Assembly: GCA_964016885.1 (NCBI GenBank)
Contig: OZ024740.1
Span: forward strand, 93,186,001-93,250,000
Length of the DNA: 64,000 nucleotides
Source of the DNA: Eledone cirrhosa
Lineage: Eukaryota
Reading direction: 5' to 3'
Part shown: in pieces, positions 1 through 6,192 of the stretch
Layout: each line of letters starts with the position of its first letter
Position numbering within the stretch: position 1 is the stretch's first letter
Translations under genes and position numbers: made by a program
Notes under the pieces: model-generated
Databases searched by the model: none
What the model was told of the DNA's origin: nothing
Seen by the model: the letters and a program-made list of their open reading frames with translations, nothing else

Positions 1-485
1 ACGTTCGAAAGTATATACTTTCCTTATGAAAATTAACGGCTGAGCAGCCTAATTTGCATATTGAGTGAGTTAAATCGGTCAGGCATACCGAAAACGATAA
101 GTTGAAAAAAATGAAAACGAAATTTCATTTCTCACTCTTAGTATGGCACTTACTTAAATGTAAGTATGTATACGTACATACATATATGTATACAGACGTA
201 CAGTAGCATGCATATATATATATATATATATATATATATATATATATATATATATATATATATATATATATATATATATATGTATATATATATATATATA
301 TATATACATATATATACACATATGCATACAGGTACACATACATATATGCACGCATCAGTTTAGCCGGCGTTTATTATAACGCCGGCCGCTTTGTTCGTTT
401 GTTTGTCAACAAAGCGAACAGCCTGAATTTATGCCATACGGTGTTAAGGCAACCACGTCACCTTTTTGTTCAACACTGACACAGG

Positions 486-530
486 AACGATGTACTAGTT
501 TCAAGCTTGTTAGCTATCATCAGCACCGTT
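486..530 (-). ncRNA. Minimal type I hammerhead ribozyme (array copy 1)
   Basis: Minus strand reads AACGGTG-CTGATGA-tAGCTaacaAGCTt-GAAA-CTAG-TA-CATCGTT: 7 bp stem I, 4 bp stem II, palindromic ACUAGU stem III, GUA cleavage site between 493 and 492. Confidence 0.9.
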
Positions 531-1025
531 TACCCATCTGCCAGATAGTTGAACGTTCGAAAGTATATACTTTCCTTATGAAAATTAACGGCTGAGCAGC
601 CTAATTTGCATATTGAGTGAGTTAAATCGGTCAGGCATACCGAAAACGATAAGTTGAAAAAAATGAAAACGAAATTTCATTTCTCACTCTTAGTATGGCA
701 CTTACTTAAATGTAAGTATGTATGTATACGTACATACATATATGTATACAGACGTACAGTAGCATGCATATATATATATATATATATATATATATATATA
801 TATATATATATATATATATATATATATATATATATATATATATATACATATATATACACATATGCATACAGGTACACATACATATATGCACGCATCAGTT
901 TAGCCGGCGTTTATTATAACGCCGGCCGCTTTGTTCGTTTGTTTGTCAACAAAGCGAACAGCCTGAATTTATGCCATACGGTGTTAAGGCAACCACGTCA
1001 CCTTTTTGTTCAACACTGACACAGG

Positions 1026-1070
1026 AACGATGTACTAGTTTCAAGCTTGTTAGCTATCATCAGCACCGTT
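1026..1070 (-). ncRNA. Hammerhead ribozyme (array copy 2)
   Basis: Identical to 486-530. Confidence 0.9.
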
Positions 1071-1559
1071 TACCCATCTGCCAGATAGTTGAACGTTCGA
1101 AAGTATATACTTTCCTTATGAAAATTAACGGCTGAGCAGCCTAATTTGCATATTGAGTGAGTTAAATCGGTCAGGCATACCGAAAACGATAAGTTGAAAA
1201 AAATGAAAACGAAATTTCATTTCTCACTCTTAGTATGGCACTTACTTAAATGTAAGTATGTATGTATACGTACATACATATATGTATACAGACGTACAGT
1301 AGCATGCATATATATATATATATATATATATATATATATATATATATATATATATATATATATATATATATATATATATACATATATATACACATATGCA
1401 TACAGGTACACATACATATATGCACGCATCAGTTTAGCCGGCGTTTATTATAACGCCGGCCGCTTTGTTCGTTTGTTTGTCAACAAAGCGAACAGCCTGA
1501 ATTTATGCCATACGGTGTTAAGGCAACCACGTCACCTTTTTGTTCAACACTAACACAGG

Positions 1560-1604
1560 AACGATGTACTAGTTTCAAGCTTGTTAGCTATCATCAGCAC
1601 CGTT
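1560..1604 (-). ncRNA. Hammerhead ribozyme (array copy 3)
   Basis: Identical to 486-530. Confidence 0.9.
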
Positions 1605-2097
1605 TACCCATCTGCCAGATAGTTGAAAGTTCGAAAGTATATACTTTCCTTATGAAAATTAACGGCTGAGCAGCCTAATTTGCATATTGAGTGAGTTAAA
1701 TCGGTCAGGCATACCGAAAACGATAAGTTGAAAAAAATGAAAACGAAATTTCATTTCTCACTCTTAGTATGGCACTTACTTAAAGGTAAGTATGTATGTA
1801 TACGTACATACATATATGTATACAGACGTACAGTAGCATGCATATATATATATATATATATATATATATATATATATATATATATATATATATATATATA
1901 TATATATATATATATATACATATATATACACATATGCATACAGGTACACATACATATATGCACGCATCAGTTTAGCCGGCGTTTATTATAACGCCGGCCG
2001 CTTTGTTCGTTTGTTTGTCAACAAAGCGAACAGCCTGAATTTATGCCATACGGTGTTAAGGCAACCACGTCACCTTTTTGTTCAACACTGACACAGG

Positions 2098-2142
2098 AAC
2101 GATGTACTAGTTTCAAGCTTGTTAGCTATCATCAGCACCGTT
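2098..2142 (-). ncRNA. Hammerhead ribozyme (array copy 4)
   Basis: Identical to 486-530. Confidence 0.9.
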
Positions 2143-2651
2143 TACCCATCTGCCAGATAGTTGAACGTTCGAAAGTATATACTTTCCTTATGAAAATTAA
2201 CGGCTGAGCAGCCTAATTTGCATATTGAGTGAGTTAAATCGGTCAGGCATACCGAAAACGATAAGTTGAAAAAAATGAAAACGAAATTTCATTTCTCACT
2301 CTTAGTATGGCACTTACTTAAATGTAAGTATGTATGTATACGTACATACATATATGTATACAGACGTACAGTAGCATGCATATATATATATATATATATA
2401 TATATATATATATATATATATATATATATATATATATATATATATATATATATATATATATATATATATATACATATATATACACATATGCATACAGGTA
2501 CACATACATATATGCACGCATCAGTTTAGCCGGCGTTTATTATAACGCCGGCCGCTTTGTTCGTTTGTTTGTCAACAAAGCGAACAGCCTGAATTTATGC
2601 CATACGGTGTTAAGGCAACCACGTCACCTTTTTGTTCAACACTAACACAGG

Positions 2652-2696
2652 AACGATGTACTAGTTTCAAGCTTGTTAGCTATCATCAGCACCGTT
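2652..2696 (-). ncRNA. Hammerhead ribozyme (array copy 5)
   Basis: Identical to 486-530. Confidence 0.9.
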
Positions 2697-3193
2697 TACC
2701 CATCTGCCAGATAGTTGAAAGTTCGAAAGTATATACTTTCCTTATGAAAATTAACGGCTGAGCAGCCTAATTTGCATATTGAGTGAGTTAAATCGGTCAG
2801 GCATACCGAAAACGATAAGTTGAAAAAAATGAAAACGAAATTTCATTTCTCACTCTTAGTATGGCACTTACTTAAAGGTAAGTATGTATGTATACGTACA
2901 TACATATATGTATACAGACGTACAGTAGCATGCATATATATATATATATATATATATATATATATATATATATATATATATATATATATATATATATATA
3001 TATATATATATATACATATATATACACATATGGATACAGGTACACATATATATATGCACGCATCAGTTTAGCCGGCGTTTATTATAACGCCGGCCGCTTT
3101 GTTCGTTTGTTTGTCAACAAAGCGAACAGCCTGAATTTATGCCATACGGTGTTAAGGCAACCACGTCACCTTTTTGTTCAACACTAACACAGG

Positions 3194-3765: not shown

Positions 3766-3810
3766 AACGATGTACTAGTTTCAAGCTTGTTAGCTATCAT
3801 CAGCACCGTT
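3766..3810 (-). ncRNA. Hammerhead ribozyme (array copy 7)
   Basis: Identical to 486-530. Confidence 0.9.
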
Positions 3811-4300
3811 TACCCATCTGCCAGATAGTTGAACGTTCGAAAGTATATACTTTCCTTATGAAAATTAACGGCTGAGCAGCCTAATTTGCATATTGAGTGA
3901 GTTAAATCGGTCAGGCATACCGAAAACGATAAGTTGAAAAAAATGAAAACGAAATTTCATTTCTCACTCTTAGTATGGCACTTACTTAAGTGTAAGTATG
4001 TATGTATACGTACATACATATATGTATACAGACGTACAGTAGCATGCATATATATATATATATATATATATATATATATATATATATATATATATATATA
4101 TATATAATATATATATATATACATATATATACACATATGCATACAGGTACACATACATATATGCACGCATCAGTTTAGCCGGCGTTTATTATAACGCCGG
4201 CCGCTTTGTTCGTTTGTTTGTCAACAAAGCGAACAGCCTGAATTTATGCCATACGGTGTTAAGGCAACCACGTCACCTTTTTGTTCAACACTGACACAGG

Positions 4301-4345
4301 AACGATGTACTAGTTTCGAGCTTGTTAGCTATCATCAGCACCGTT
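4301..4345 (-). ncRNA. Hammerhead ribozyme (array copy 8)
   Basis: As 486-530 with one substitution just before GAAA (AGCTc-GAAA). Confidence 0.88.
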
Positions 4346-4824
4346 TACCCATCTGCCAGATAGTTAAACGTTCTAAAGTATATACTTTCCTTATGAAAAT
4401 TAACGGCTGAGCAGCCTAATTTGCATATTGAGTGAGTTAAATCGGTCAGGCATACCGAAAGCGATAAGTTGAAAAAAATGAAAACGAAATTTCATTTCGC
4501 ACTCTTAGTATGGCACTTACTTAAGTGTAAGTATGTATGTATACGTACATACATATATGTATACAGACGTACAGTAGCATGCATATATATATATATATAT
4601 ATATATATATATATATATATATATATATATATATATATATATATACATATATATACACATATGCATACAGGTACACATACATATATGCACGCATCAGTTT
4701 AGCCGGCGTTTATTATAACGCCGGCCGCTTTGTTCGTTTGTTTGTCAACAAAGCGAACAGCCTGAATTTATGCCATACGGTTTTAAGGCAACCACGTCAC
4801 CTTTTTGTTCAACACTGACACAGG

Positions 4825-4869
4825 AACGATGTACTAGTTTCAAGCTTGTTAGCTATCATCAGCACCGTT
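4825..4869 (-). ncRNA. Hammerhead ribozyme (array copy 9)
   Basis: Identical to 486-530. Confidence 0.9.
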
Positions 4870-5378
4870 TACCCATCTGCCAGATAGTTGAACGTTCGAA
4901 AGTATATACTTTCCTTATGAAAATTAACGGCTGAGCAGCCTAATTTGCATGTTGAGTGAGTTAAATCGGTCAGGCATACCGAAAACGATAAGTTGAAAAA
5001 AATGAAAACGAAATTTCATTTCTCACTCTTAGTATGGCACTTACTTAAATGTAAGTATGTATGTATACGTACATACATATATGTATACAGACGTACAGTA
5101 GCATGCATATATATATATATATATATATATATATATATATATATATATATATATATATATATATATATATATATATATATATATATATATATATATATAC
5201 ATATATATACACATATGCATACAGGTACACATACATATATGCACGCATCAGTTTAGCCGGCGTATATTATAACGCCGGCCGCTTTGTTCGTTTGTTTGTC
5301 AACAAAGCGAACAGCCTGAATGTATGCCATACGGTGTTAAGGCAACCACGTCACCTTTTTGTTCAACACTGACACAGG

Positions 5379-5423
5379 AACGATGTACTAGTTTCAAGCT
5401 TGTTAGCTATCATCAGCACCGTT
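5379..5423 (-). ncRNA. Hammerhead ribozyme (array copy 10)
   Basis: Identical to 486-530. Confidence 0.9.
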
Positions 5424-5918
5424 TACCCATCTGCCAGATAGTTGAACGTTCGAAAGTATATACTTTCCTTATGAAAATTAACGGCTGAGCAGCCTAATGT
5501 GCATATTGAGTGAGTAAAATCGGTCAGGCATACCGAAAACGATAAGTTGAAAAAAATGAAAACGAAATTTCATTTCTCACTCTTAGTATGGCACTTACTT
5601 AAATGTAAGTATGCATGTATACGTACATACATATATGTATACAGACGTACAGTAGCATGCATATATATATATATATATATATATATATATATATATATAT
5701 ATATATATATATATATATATATATATATATATATATATACATATATATACACATATGCATACAGGTACACATACATATGTGCACGCATCAGTTTAGCCGG
5801 CGTTTATTATAACGCCGGCCGCTTTGTTCGTTTGTTTGTCAACAAAGCGAACAGCCTGAATTTATGCCATACGGTGTTAAGGCAACCACGTCACCTTTTT
5901 GTTCAACACTGACACAGG

Positions 5919-5963
5919 AACGATGTACTTGTTTCAAGCTTGTTAGCTATCATCAGCACCGTT
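5919..5963 (-). ncRNA. Hammerhead ribozyme (array copy 11, stem III palindrome mutated)
   Basis: GAAACAAGTA instead of GAAACTAGTA. Overlaps the stop codon of the PLE ORF. Confidence 0.8.
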
Positions 5964-6192
5964 TACCCTTATTTATGCTATTATCGCTAGGTTTTAAGTT
6001 CCTGTTATTTATTCTATTAATATTTTGCGCTAAATTGTTGGTGGATGAGTAGGTTAGTTTTATAGTATGTCTATTGAAAATTGCGTGATACCTATGTGTT
6101 CTAGGGAAGCGATTATCGAGAGCTTTAAAAAATAGTTTATCAATGTAGGTTTTAATGTTTAGTGAGAAAGGGGGGGGGGGGGGGCAAACCAT
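5953..6192 (-). CDS. C-terminal continuation of the PLE RT ORF after a frameshift in a poly-C run; GIY-YIG endonuclease absent
   Basis: [43 protein letters not shown] matches the PLE post-RT region also seen at 15.4 kb and 62.6 kb. Ends at the TGA of the HHR core. Confidence 0.85.
   Translation of the reverse strand: MVCPPPPPFSLNIKTYIDKLFFKALDNRFPRTHRYHAIFNRHTIKLTYSSTNNLAQNINRINNRNLKPSDNSINKGKRC

Follow-up and report, generated by a model that had tools for sequence, protein, structure and literature searches.

A tandem hammerhead array in Eledone cirrhosa as one insertion of a dispersed retrozyme family with PLE-like ends

The window (the whole 64,000-nt stretch of Eledone cirrhosa DNA analyzed here) opens inside a tandem array of hammerhead-bearing units, which is a single insertion of a dispersed family and not a local satellite. 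In the explanation that we prefer and consider probable, it belongs to a non-coding retrozyme family of high copy number, with copies that stop at two fixed sites next to genomic (TA)n, and it was likely copied in by a PLE reverse transcriptase-endonuclease.

The array and its family

We identified 11 minus-strand CUGAUGA..GAAA motifs in the window (C3 at 523, 1063, 1597, 2135, 2689, 3231, 3803, 4338, 4862, 5416, and 5956; Table 1), which bound 10 complete cleavage-to-cleavage units of 524 to 572 bp. This agrees with the sequence-only reading, an earlier interpretation that reported at least 11 near-identical units of ~540 bp. Differences in unit length come mostly from the internal (TA)n; with the AT-rich part left out, array units diverge by 0.8% on average. 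The array extends 2,038 bp beyond the window's left edge, to C1:93183963, and in full (window plus the DNA to its left) comprises 15 hammerhead motifs in 8,006 bp; type I hammerheads thus recur in at least two consecutive units, as in retrozymes. On the left it stops at E2, the long 3′ end of the family, after which comes ACACA(TA)24. Its 5′ end lies at 5968, 43 nt upstream of a cleavage site, where it joins an older Hydra-PLE fragment, and only the E2 arm is present. The flanks of the array are themselves repeats. Haplotypes within the window array follow a dimer repeat pattern; the array was also enlarged after insertion through local duplication.

Table 1 Features of the array and its surroundings, in window coordinates
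Feature	Position	Strand	Remark
Tandem retrozyme array, single-armed	1..5968	-	continues left of window
Type I hammerhead motif	486..530	-	stem I 530-524/492-486, CUGAUGA 523-517, GAAA, ACUAGU
Hammerhead motif, common form	1026..1070	-	
Further common-form motifs	1560-1604, 2098-2142, 2652-2696, 3194-3238	-	
Further common-form motifs	3766-3810, 4825-4869, 5379-5423	-	
Hammerhead motif with U to C at position 11.1	4301..4345	-	
Hammerhead motif of partial 5′-most unit	5919..5963	-	stem III palindrome lost
Reference monomer, cleavage to cleavage	1033..1566	-	534 nt; unit position 1 = window 1566
16-nt TATA-containing palindrome	1114-1099	-	part of candidate internal promoter
Octamer ATGCAAAT	1151-1144	-	part of candidate internal promoter
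"Tail" between two fixed 3′ ends	1189..1256	-	E1 to E2
E1	~1256-1247	-	unit ~311-320
E2	~1192-1189	-	unit ~375-378
Internal (TA)n tract of reference unit	1309..1380	none	
Hydra-clade PLE ORF fragment (RT region)	5969..7190	-	joined mid-ORF to array 5′ end
Genomic (TA)n past PLE fragment	7194..7291	.	
Older-subfamily member, two arms head to head	23755..24732	.	84% over 393 nt

A direct reading of the unit revealed neither protein coding nor LTR architecture; among the ORFs listed from position 5900 on, the one unit-spanning frame of at least 100 aa is an Ile-Tyr repeat through the (TA)n. A 29-nt core pattern has 24,708 exact matches in the genome and its reversed control has 0, so the matches are not due to chance. 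Copies are dispersed and mostly short, fall into several subfamilies, and occur in high number beside active PLEs, as non-LTR retrozymes do. The young non-autonomous ribozyme retroelement proposed earlier is supported: the element is young, codes for no protein, carries a ribozyme, and belongs with the non-LTR retrozymes.

The class is already known. Like the non-LTR retrozymes of other metazoans (Cervera and de la Pena 2020, PMC7229834; Li, Clavereau and Pollet 2026, bioRxiv 10.64898/2026.07.22.740005), the family is made up of tandem repeats that code for no protein and have a single type I hammerhead in each unit, is present in thousands of dispersed copies, and co-occurs with PLEs; unlike in published retrozymes, a homologous parent pLTR was not found for it in the loci sampled. 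The sequence-only reading had considered a large unit with a built-in microsatellite unusual, but neither feature is exceptional. The unit falls within the 51 to 972 bp of published family consensus lengths (bioRxiv 2026.07.22.740005). The long (TA)n reflects expansion in this subfamily: the median longest (TA) run is 15.5 repeats in the array subfamily versus 6 elsewhere, older subfamilies having ~(TA)6. One older-subfamily member lies in the window itself (23755..24732), with one arm ending at E1, the other at E2, and TA on both sides. The octamer and TATA palindrome (1099..1151) form a candidate internal promoter; a 30-nt block that includes this octamer is matched exactly 19,307 times in the genome.

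The hammerhead motif

Every window motif combines a stem I of 7 bp (AACGGUG/CAUCGUU) with a stem II of 4 bp closed by an AACA loop, and has a GUA triplet; 11 of the 15 array motifs match the common motif exactly. From these two stems and the triplet, cleavage of the motif at 486..530, with its U.U and 4-bp stem II, is predicted at 493/492, the site named in the sequence-only reading. Ten of the 11 motifs in the window carry ACUAGU (the one with C3 at 5956 has ACAAGU), and position 10.1-11.1 is U.U rather than G-C. That reading had described a minus-strand minimal type I hammerhead. The type, the 7-bp stem I, and the palindrome (in 10/11) were borne out, but the motif is canonical, with a U.U-based stem II, rather than minimal. 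As PMC4209133 defines the canonical metazoan type I form against the minimal PLE form, the former has the features found here: an invariant core, a helix I of ~6 bp, a helix II of 4 bp, and a helix III of 1-2 bp with a palindromic loop. The minimal form (min-HHR) has a helix I of 4-5 bp whose loop 1 is ill-defined and, in the Schistosoma type, a helix II of 7-8 bp (PMC4209133); it is ruled out by a helix I of 6-7 bp with an extension and a helix II of 4 bp. Stem I is predicted to be extended and interrupted.

To gauge conservation, we used 58 copies chosen by a non-ribozyme anchor and counted as shared any variant present in at least 4 copies. No shared variant occurred in the 26 columns of core, stem II, and stem III, whereas 70 of the remaining 167 columns have one; the core thus shows excess conservation, a point on which the sequence-only reading could have been refuted. 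Inside the motif, shared variants fall only at N7, in loop II, and at pair 3 of stem I. Invariant blocks exist outside the ribozyme too in this test, so conservation is not unique to the ribozyme. The core could be parsed in 61 distinct sequences (12 of 73 were unparsed), and in these, pair 3 is G.U in 39, U.G in 11, A-U in 7, C-G in 1, and U.U in 3. At the sequence level, stem I covaries and the core carries no shared variants across subfamilies; self-cleavage is predicted from this conservation and covariation.

Model searches and folding weigh against the preferred explanation. Rfam Hammerhead_1 (RF00163), the search proposed in the sequence-only reading, gave no match for the window at E ≤ 1. 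Three window copies match Hammerhead_HH9 (RF02275) weakly (19 bits, E 0.77; gathering score 52), and the gathering threshold was not reached for hammerhead families. Rfam miRNA matches, far under their gathering scores, were discarded as (TA)n artefacts. Folded on its own, the motif does not surpass shuffles (z −1.64), the three core-adjacent stem I pairs have pairing probabilities of 0.18-0.28 in the predicted circle, and stem III is unable to close as a monomer, where a single pair would cost 5.4 kcal/mol.

Insertion ends and the proposed copying route

Of the 226 3′ ends that we placed, 192 coincide with E1 or E2, two sites about 57 nt apart, and 34 are elsewhere. Among two-armed insertions with both ends fixed, E1 is paired with E2 in 56 of 58 (54/56 without two noticed duplicates); another 27 two-armed insertions have one non-E1/E2 end. 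In the first 55 loci, flanks are TA-rich at 63 of 70 E1/E2 ends. A few copies do end inside the internal (TA)n, which we rejected as the main priming site because the ends lie downstream at E1/E2.

The 5′ ends are scattered round the unit, only 3 of 179 placeable ends lying within 5 nt of the cleavage site. Seven of 46 placeable single-arm 5′ ends, including that of the window array, lie 30-50 nt upstream of the cut, although this cluster may reflect the choice of loci by core pattern. Either arm of a head-to-head insertion may be the longer one, which disfavors fold-back copying of one arm from the other; later expansion could blur arm lengths. Inner junctions show short overlaps, and four are palindromic (many rows of this census are spurious (TA)n matches, and it was used only for these two features).

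This geometry is that of PLE insertions: fixed 3′ ends with an optional tail, 5′ truncation, and an inverted 5′ copy. That one of the inverted repeats bears a tail is the hallmark of PLEs (PMC3846280, PMC8557442). The tail is located between two sites where RT starts, and in vitro the PLE protein cuts and extends both strands (PMC11167929). Like insertions of endonuclease-bearing PLEs, those of the family have 5′ truncation, partial tandems, and a head-to-head inverted copy (PMC3846280, PMC8557442, PMC11167929), as well as a one-ended tail, palindromes at some inverted junctions, and (TA)n targeting, which is reported for Hydra and Naiad, with a microsatellite bias for Neptune (PMC3846280, PMC8557442, PMC11167929). 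Autonomous elements of the Neptune type in this genome likewise have two 3′ ends joined to (TA)n. Unlike those PLEs, the family lacks an ORF, either arm can contain many whole units, and its tail is about 57 nt versus 30-40 nt. The E1/E2 pattern, the known PLE tail on a retrozyme, points to PLE mobilization. These PLE-type ends are the most informative feature and lay beyond the reach of the sequence-only reading. By term search, the main texts of PMC7229834 and bioRxiv 2026.07.22.740005 describe neither fixed ends such as E1/E2 nor (TA)n targets nor arms placed head to head.

We propose that minus-strand multimeric transcripts would be cut by hammerheads paired via their ACUAGU palindromes, giving unit-length RNA that may circularize. 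A PLE protein would bind the tail region and cut both (TA)n strands, with one cDNA initiated at E1 and one at E2. Each cDNA would pass the ribozyme site and a variable number of units, so the template would be a circle or an uncut multimer, and the cDNA ends would be united by short homology or at a palindrome. In favor of this explanation, both arms carry an allele absent from every other insertion in 8 of the 31 insertions compared, versus 2.1% of 1,162 and 2.8% of 352 control pairings. Against it, the other 23 have no private allele common to both arms, and arm-to-arm distance is below that to the nearest other insertion in only 16 of 31 (Wilcoxon p 0.84).

PLE mobilization of animal retrozymes has been inferred in the literature from co-occurrence and pLTR homology; the useful part here is the end geometry, in which the insertions themselves bear the PLE signature. 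One tail end per arm is a near-strict rule in this family. It connects the pair of sites at which RT starts in vitro with an Anolis PLE to unexplained inverted PLE insertions, and the short RNA template offers a direct test of it.

More tentatively, and with rather less than an even chance in our judgment, one PLE protein dimer on the tail of a single circular retrozyme RNA would cut both (TA)n strands and launch two rolling cDNAs, one per tail side, making every two-armed insertion a double priming on one circle. If double priming on one circle is correct, this family of ~25,000 copies would be genomic proof that animal retrozymes ride PLE enzymes without a common pLTR. It would also supply a substrate at hand for rebuilding PLE inversion in vitro.

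Neighboring PLEs and rival explanations

The Hydra PLE fragment at the array's 5′ end is a neighbor, not a parent: 14 other copies continue into their own endonuclease at the junction, so we rejected the array as 3′ pLTRs of this element. The fragment is unrecognized by Pfam and NCBIfam. It has 15 private substitutions in 1.2 kb, versus 1-6 in the 14 other copies, none of which is closer than 1.4%, and a search of the 20 kb on the left did not recover the rest of that element; co-insertion with the array by template switch, though conceivable, is not supported. The unit-like sequence at 23755-24732 was likewise rejected as a pLTR of the neighboring Neptune-type element because other copies, among those listed, carry a different pLTR.

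The units might instead be the pLTR of an unsampled autonomous PLE and the arrays its 5′-truncated tandem insertions, which we regard as improbable. The ends, tail, inversion, and (TA)n targeting are all PLE-like, and in Xenopus 24 of 57 retrozyme families match known elements, nearly all PLEs, at pLTRs (bioRxiv 2026.07.22.740005). The genome has 10,596 GIY-YIG candidates and a Neptune-type open frame of 938 aa, and a small sample of 50 candidate loci was examined. Neither these 50 nor the sequence behind about 30 Hydra-type endonuclease matches yielded an autonomous PLE whose pLTR is homologous to the unit. The partner search gave nothing clearly above shuffles outside AT-rich sequence; its best likeness, 22 nt in a Hydra-family 3′ UTR (score 32 versus shuffle maxima of 26-29), was not accepted. 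Against such a parent, arrays at loci L028-L030 join unit to unit for more than 40 units without an ORF, PLE ORFs beside family members at the loci inspected are not joined to the element as their own 3′ end, the 14 Hydra-PLE copies continue as described above, and the sampled Neptune-type PLEs have minimal hammerheads unrelated to the retrozyme motif. Non-autonomous Chlamys PLEs such as MRC1 generally share their 3′-end sequence with an autonomous family, and hammerheads are lacking in most elements of the Chlamys type (PMC8557442); the window family has a hammerhead, and a matching autonomous family was not found in the loci sampled.

It is possible, though less likely than not, that PLEs mobilized the family from an uncut linear multimer, with no circle and a ribozyme that is inactive or plays no part in spreading. 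This overlaps with the preferred explanation because the PLE step is common to both. The U.U at the base of stem II and the unclosable monomer stem III are in its favor, as are the 5′ ends 30-50 nt upstream of the cut, near a possible TATA-driven start, setting aside that the choice of loci may have produced them. In vitro, uncleaved RNA was the main substrate for a PLE (PMC11167929). Against the preferred explanation, ribozyme cleavage was dispensable for PLE insertion in vitro (PMC11167929), and 8 of 9 predicted retrozyme dimers failed to cleave in a published test (bioRxiv 2026.07.22.740005). An inactive ribozyme fits poorly with a core free of shared variants across subfamilies and a covarying stem I. 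Axolotl HHR_Amex2 / Rtz_353 is, like the window motif, of type I with U.U at the stem II base and in tandem repeats (PMC7229834); its cleavage is 22% as a monomer and much higher as a dimer, and circles were detected (PMC7229834). Its stem III has 2 bp and a tetraloop, however, whereas that of the window is the ACUAGU palindrome with no monomer hairpin.

An ordinary satellite or minisatellite, grown at the DNA level by unequal exchange or Helitron/MITE capture around a chance or fossil hammerhead, is very unlikely. Long arrays do contain periodic haplotypes, as in the dimer repeat of the window and the higher-order repeats of L028-L030 that stem from local duplication, but DNA-level exchange accounts for growth after insertion and not for the insertions. 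Dispersed, mostly short copies whose 3′ ends are fixed while their 5′ ends vary, and whose arms lie head to head, do not fit it, and this end structure largely refutes it.

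Two fixed 3' ends and head-to-head arms

We mapped the ends of the retrozyme at 134 loci of the assembly (55 taken from the initial 100 matches to the core pattern on C1, the contig carrying the window; 35 mostly from a list built on a non-ribozyme anchor; and 44 chosen by identity), with three complex clusters dropped. Most of the 226 3' ends fall at two fixed places about 57 nt apart, E2 (unit position ~375-378; 106 ends) and E1 (~311-320; 86 ends), with 34 elsewhere. TA-rich DNA abuts 63/70 E1 or E2 ends in the first 55 loci. Eighty-five insertions consist of two oppositely oriented arms joined head to head, and 27 of these have one end at a place other than E1 or E2; the remaining 58 comprise 56 E1+E2, one E1+E1, and one E2+E2 (E1+E2 in 54/56 once the duplicates L142/L145 and two in L248 are removed). 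Either arm can be the longer one.

The 5' ends are scattered. The AT-rich zone contains 47 of the 226, which are therefore unplaceable; of the 179 placeable ones, only 3 come to 5 nt or less from the cleavage site. Copying therefore continues across the ribozyme site. A cut linear monomer is thereby excluded as the usual template, with a circle and an uncut multimer as the candidates. Inner junctions, read by eye from a set with many spurious rows, mostly show 0- to 7-nt overlaps or short gaps, and four lie on palindromes. An allele private to the insertion is common to both arms in 8/31 cases, versus 2.1% (n = 1,162) and 2.8% (n = 352) among control pairings. The excess points to a single template or a single source locus, although conversion between the arms could produce it too. 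A cruder distance test was negative: the arm-to-arm distance was below that to the closest other insertion in 16/31.

Hallmarks described for Penelope-like elements (PLEs) include a 30-40 bp tail on one inverted repeat, 5' truncation, and partial tandems (PMC3846280, PMC8557442). For an Anolis PLE, two RT start sites are described as bounding the tail; the protein, a predicted dimer, cleaves both strands of AT-rich DNA and extends them, and ribozyme cleavage is reported as not needed in vitro (PMC11167929). The rule of one end per arm in the retrozyme is consistent with one cDNA having started at each of E1 and E2. Autonomous Neptune-type families of the same genome likewise have two (TA)n-joined ends, e.g., 66 nt apart in the family represented in the window (see table). 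The retrozyme is a real element of an ordinary class; its mechanistic signature is clean and open to testing. Published work already covers non-LTR retrozymes and proposes that they originate from PLEs (PMC7229834; bioRxiv 10.64898/2026.07.22.740005; PMC8969392). Searches of the openly accessible literature, with term counts in the main texts of PMC7229834 and bioRxiv 10.64898/2026.07.22.740005, turned up no account of retrozyme insertions whose ends carry tails and whose arms lie head to head.

The array and its surroundings

The left edge of the window falls within the tandem array, which contributes 11 minus-strand hammerhead motifs to the window, along with 10 complete units (524-572 bp) that differ in length mainly because of the internal (TA)n. 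With the DNA to the left included, the array spans C1:93183963-93191968 (8,006 bp, 15 motifs), and its 15 units diverge pairwise by 0.8% on average (AT-rich part excluded). Variant patterns reveal a duplicated dimer in the window array and higher-order repeats in the array at L028-L030; therefore, arrays grow after insertion too. The latter (C4:352454343-352477948, 23 kb) restarts twice internally within the AT-rich zone and has periodic haplotypes; it is a retrozyme turning into a higher-order satellite.

The window array is single-armed. Its E2 end abuts (TA)24, which also terminates a plus-strand Hydra-type element on the left, and its 5' end is joined, with no shared base, to the middle of another PLE ORF. 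Relatives of this PLE show the features described for the Hydra clade: a CxCx5C linker together with CxxC and CxH motifs, CCHH being absent. Because 14 other copies continue normally at the junction position and the fragment is more diverged than those copies, it is probably an older neighbour of the array. Left of the window, two related Hydra-type fragments about 10.5 kb apart (L021:2028-3899 and L022:2531-3421) are possibly a local duplication. Another short repeat family, in inverted arrangement in the window, is common in the sampled loci.

Features in the window (unit positions count from cleavage to cleavage; position 1 = window 1566)
Feature	Window position	Strand	Unit position
TATA palindrome	1114-1099		453-468
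Conserved octamer	1151-1144		416-423
PLE ORF fragment at array 5' end	5969-7190
Short repeat family, inverted	7436-8300
Hydra-type endonuclease piece	15840-16216	+
Neptune-like RT piece	18327-18985	+
Neptune-type PLE	19244-23750	-
Hammerhead core in its pLTR	19349
Older two-armed family member	23755-24732
Further hammerhead-like motif	24828 onward	+
GIY-YIG piece	28217-28786	-
Hydra-type endonuclease piece	62671-63264	+

The hammerhead motif

The motif comprises a 7-bp stem I, CUGAUGA, a U.U pair below a 4-bp stem II, GAAA, and the palindrome ACUAGU, with an interrupted extension of stem I predicted by folding. Its common form accounts for 11/15 array motifs; the other four differ in stem II, GAAA, position 11.1, and stem III. 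Cleavage predicted after GUA agrees with the cut at 493/492 proposed by the sequence-only reading, which had called the hammerhead minimal; by the definitions in PMC4209133, it is instead the canonical metazoan type I, thought to act as a dimer, and not the minimal PLE form. The best Rfam match, to HH9 in three copies (19 bits, E 0.77), is sub-threshold. A closed stem III in the monomer has a computed cost of 5.4 kcal/mol; pairing of ACUAGU between two copies is computed to gain 4.8-6.8 kcal/mol. For axolotl HHR_Amex2, which likewise has U.U at the base of stem II, reported cleavage is 22% in the monomer and much higher in the dimer (PMC7229834).

An anchor outside the ribozyme selected 58 distinct copies, all of which were kept; among them, variants common to at least four copies occupy 0/26 core, stem II, and stem III columns versus 70/167 others (Fisher p 4e-6, with columns non-independent and far-end indels inflating the outside count). 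Within the motif, the only positions with shared variants are N7, loop II, and the two nucleotides of stem I pair 3. Of 73 sequences tallied, 12 could not be parsed; among the 61 distinct ones that could, 58 have G.U, U.G, A-U, or C-G at that pair. Three points count against activity: other blocks of the unit are likewise invariant, the predicted fold of the motif in isolation does not surpass those of its shuffles (z -1.64), and the stem I pairs closest to the core reach a probability of only 0.18-0.28 in the predicted circle. On balance, ribozyme activity is likely. In a published test, 8/9 predicted retrozyme dimers are reported without cleavage (bioRxiv 10.64898/2026.07.22.740005).

Family, candidate partners, and upstream region

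Exact searches of the 3.0-Gb assembly recover the 29-nt core 24,708 times (its reversed control, 0 times) and a 30-nt block from outside the core 19,307 times. Core matches are arranged as singles, pairs, and arrays, with >40 units in L028-L030. Units of the older subfamilies measure about 420-430 bp, and their internal site holds roughly (TA)6; the median longest TA run is 6 in 40 B-like units versus 15.5 in 24 A-like units, and the built-in microsatellite is therefore an expansion in a young subfamily, not the unusual trait it had first seemed. Nor is the large unit exceptional, since retrozyme families on record range from 51 to 972 bp (bioRxiv 10.64898/2026.07.22.740005). The further hammerhead-like motif in the window (8-bp stem I, long stem II) adjoins the older two-armed retrozyme copy and is present at two other loci, L201 and L214.

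We looked for a PLE with the retrozyme unit as its pLTR in 50 of 10,596 candidate GIY-YIG loci and behind about 30 hits to Hydra-type endonucleases, and found none. Because both end in (TA)n in this genome, Neptune and Hydra families are candidates for the presumed mobilising partner. The Neptune-type PLE in the window has a broken ORF and a pLTR with a minimal hammerhead bearing a U3-A8 core variant; a 938-aa open frame of the same family lies at L196. Neptune-type families number at least five across loci L166-L215, where one Poseidon-type family also occurs; the pLTRs of these families are distinct and end in (TA)n, and several families have a minimal hammerhead of their own with a different palindromic stem III.

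The octamer and TATA palindrome, 70-120 nt upstream of the cut, are candidate promoter elements; snRNA-type promoters use an octamer. Newt satellite 2 is cited as using a promoter of this type (PMC2220036). One older subfamily carries a perfect splice-donor-like AG/GTAAGT at the start of the TATA palindrome, and a Hydra-family 3' UTR resembles this stretch over 22 nt.
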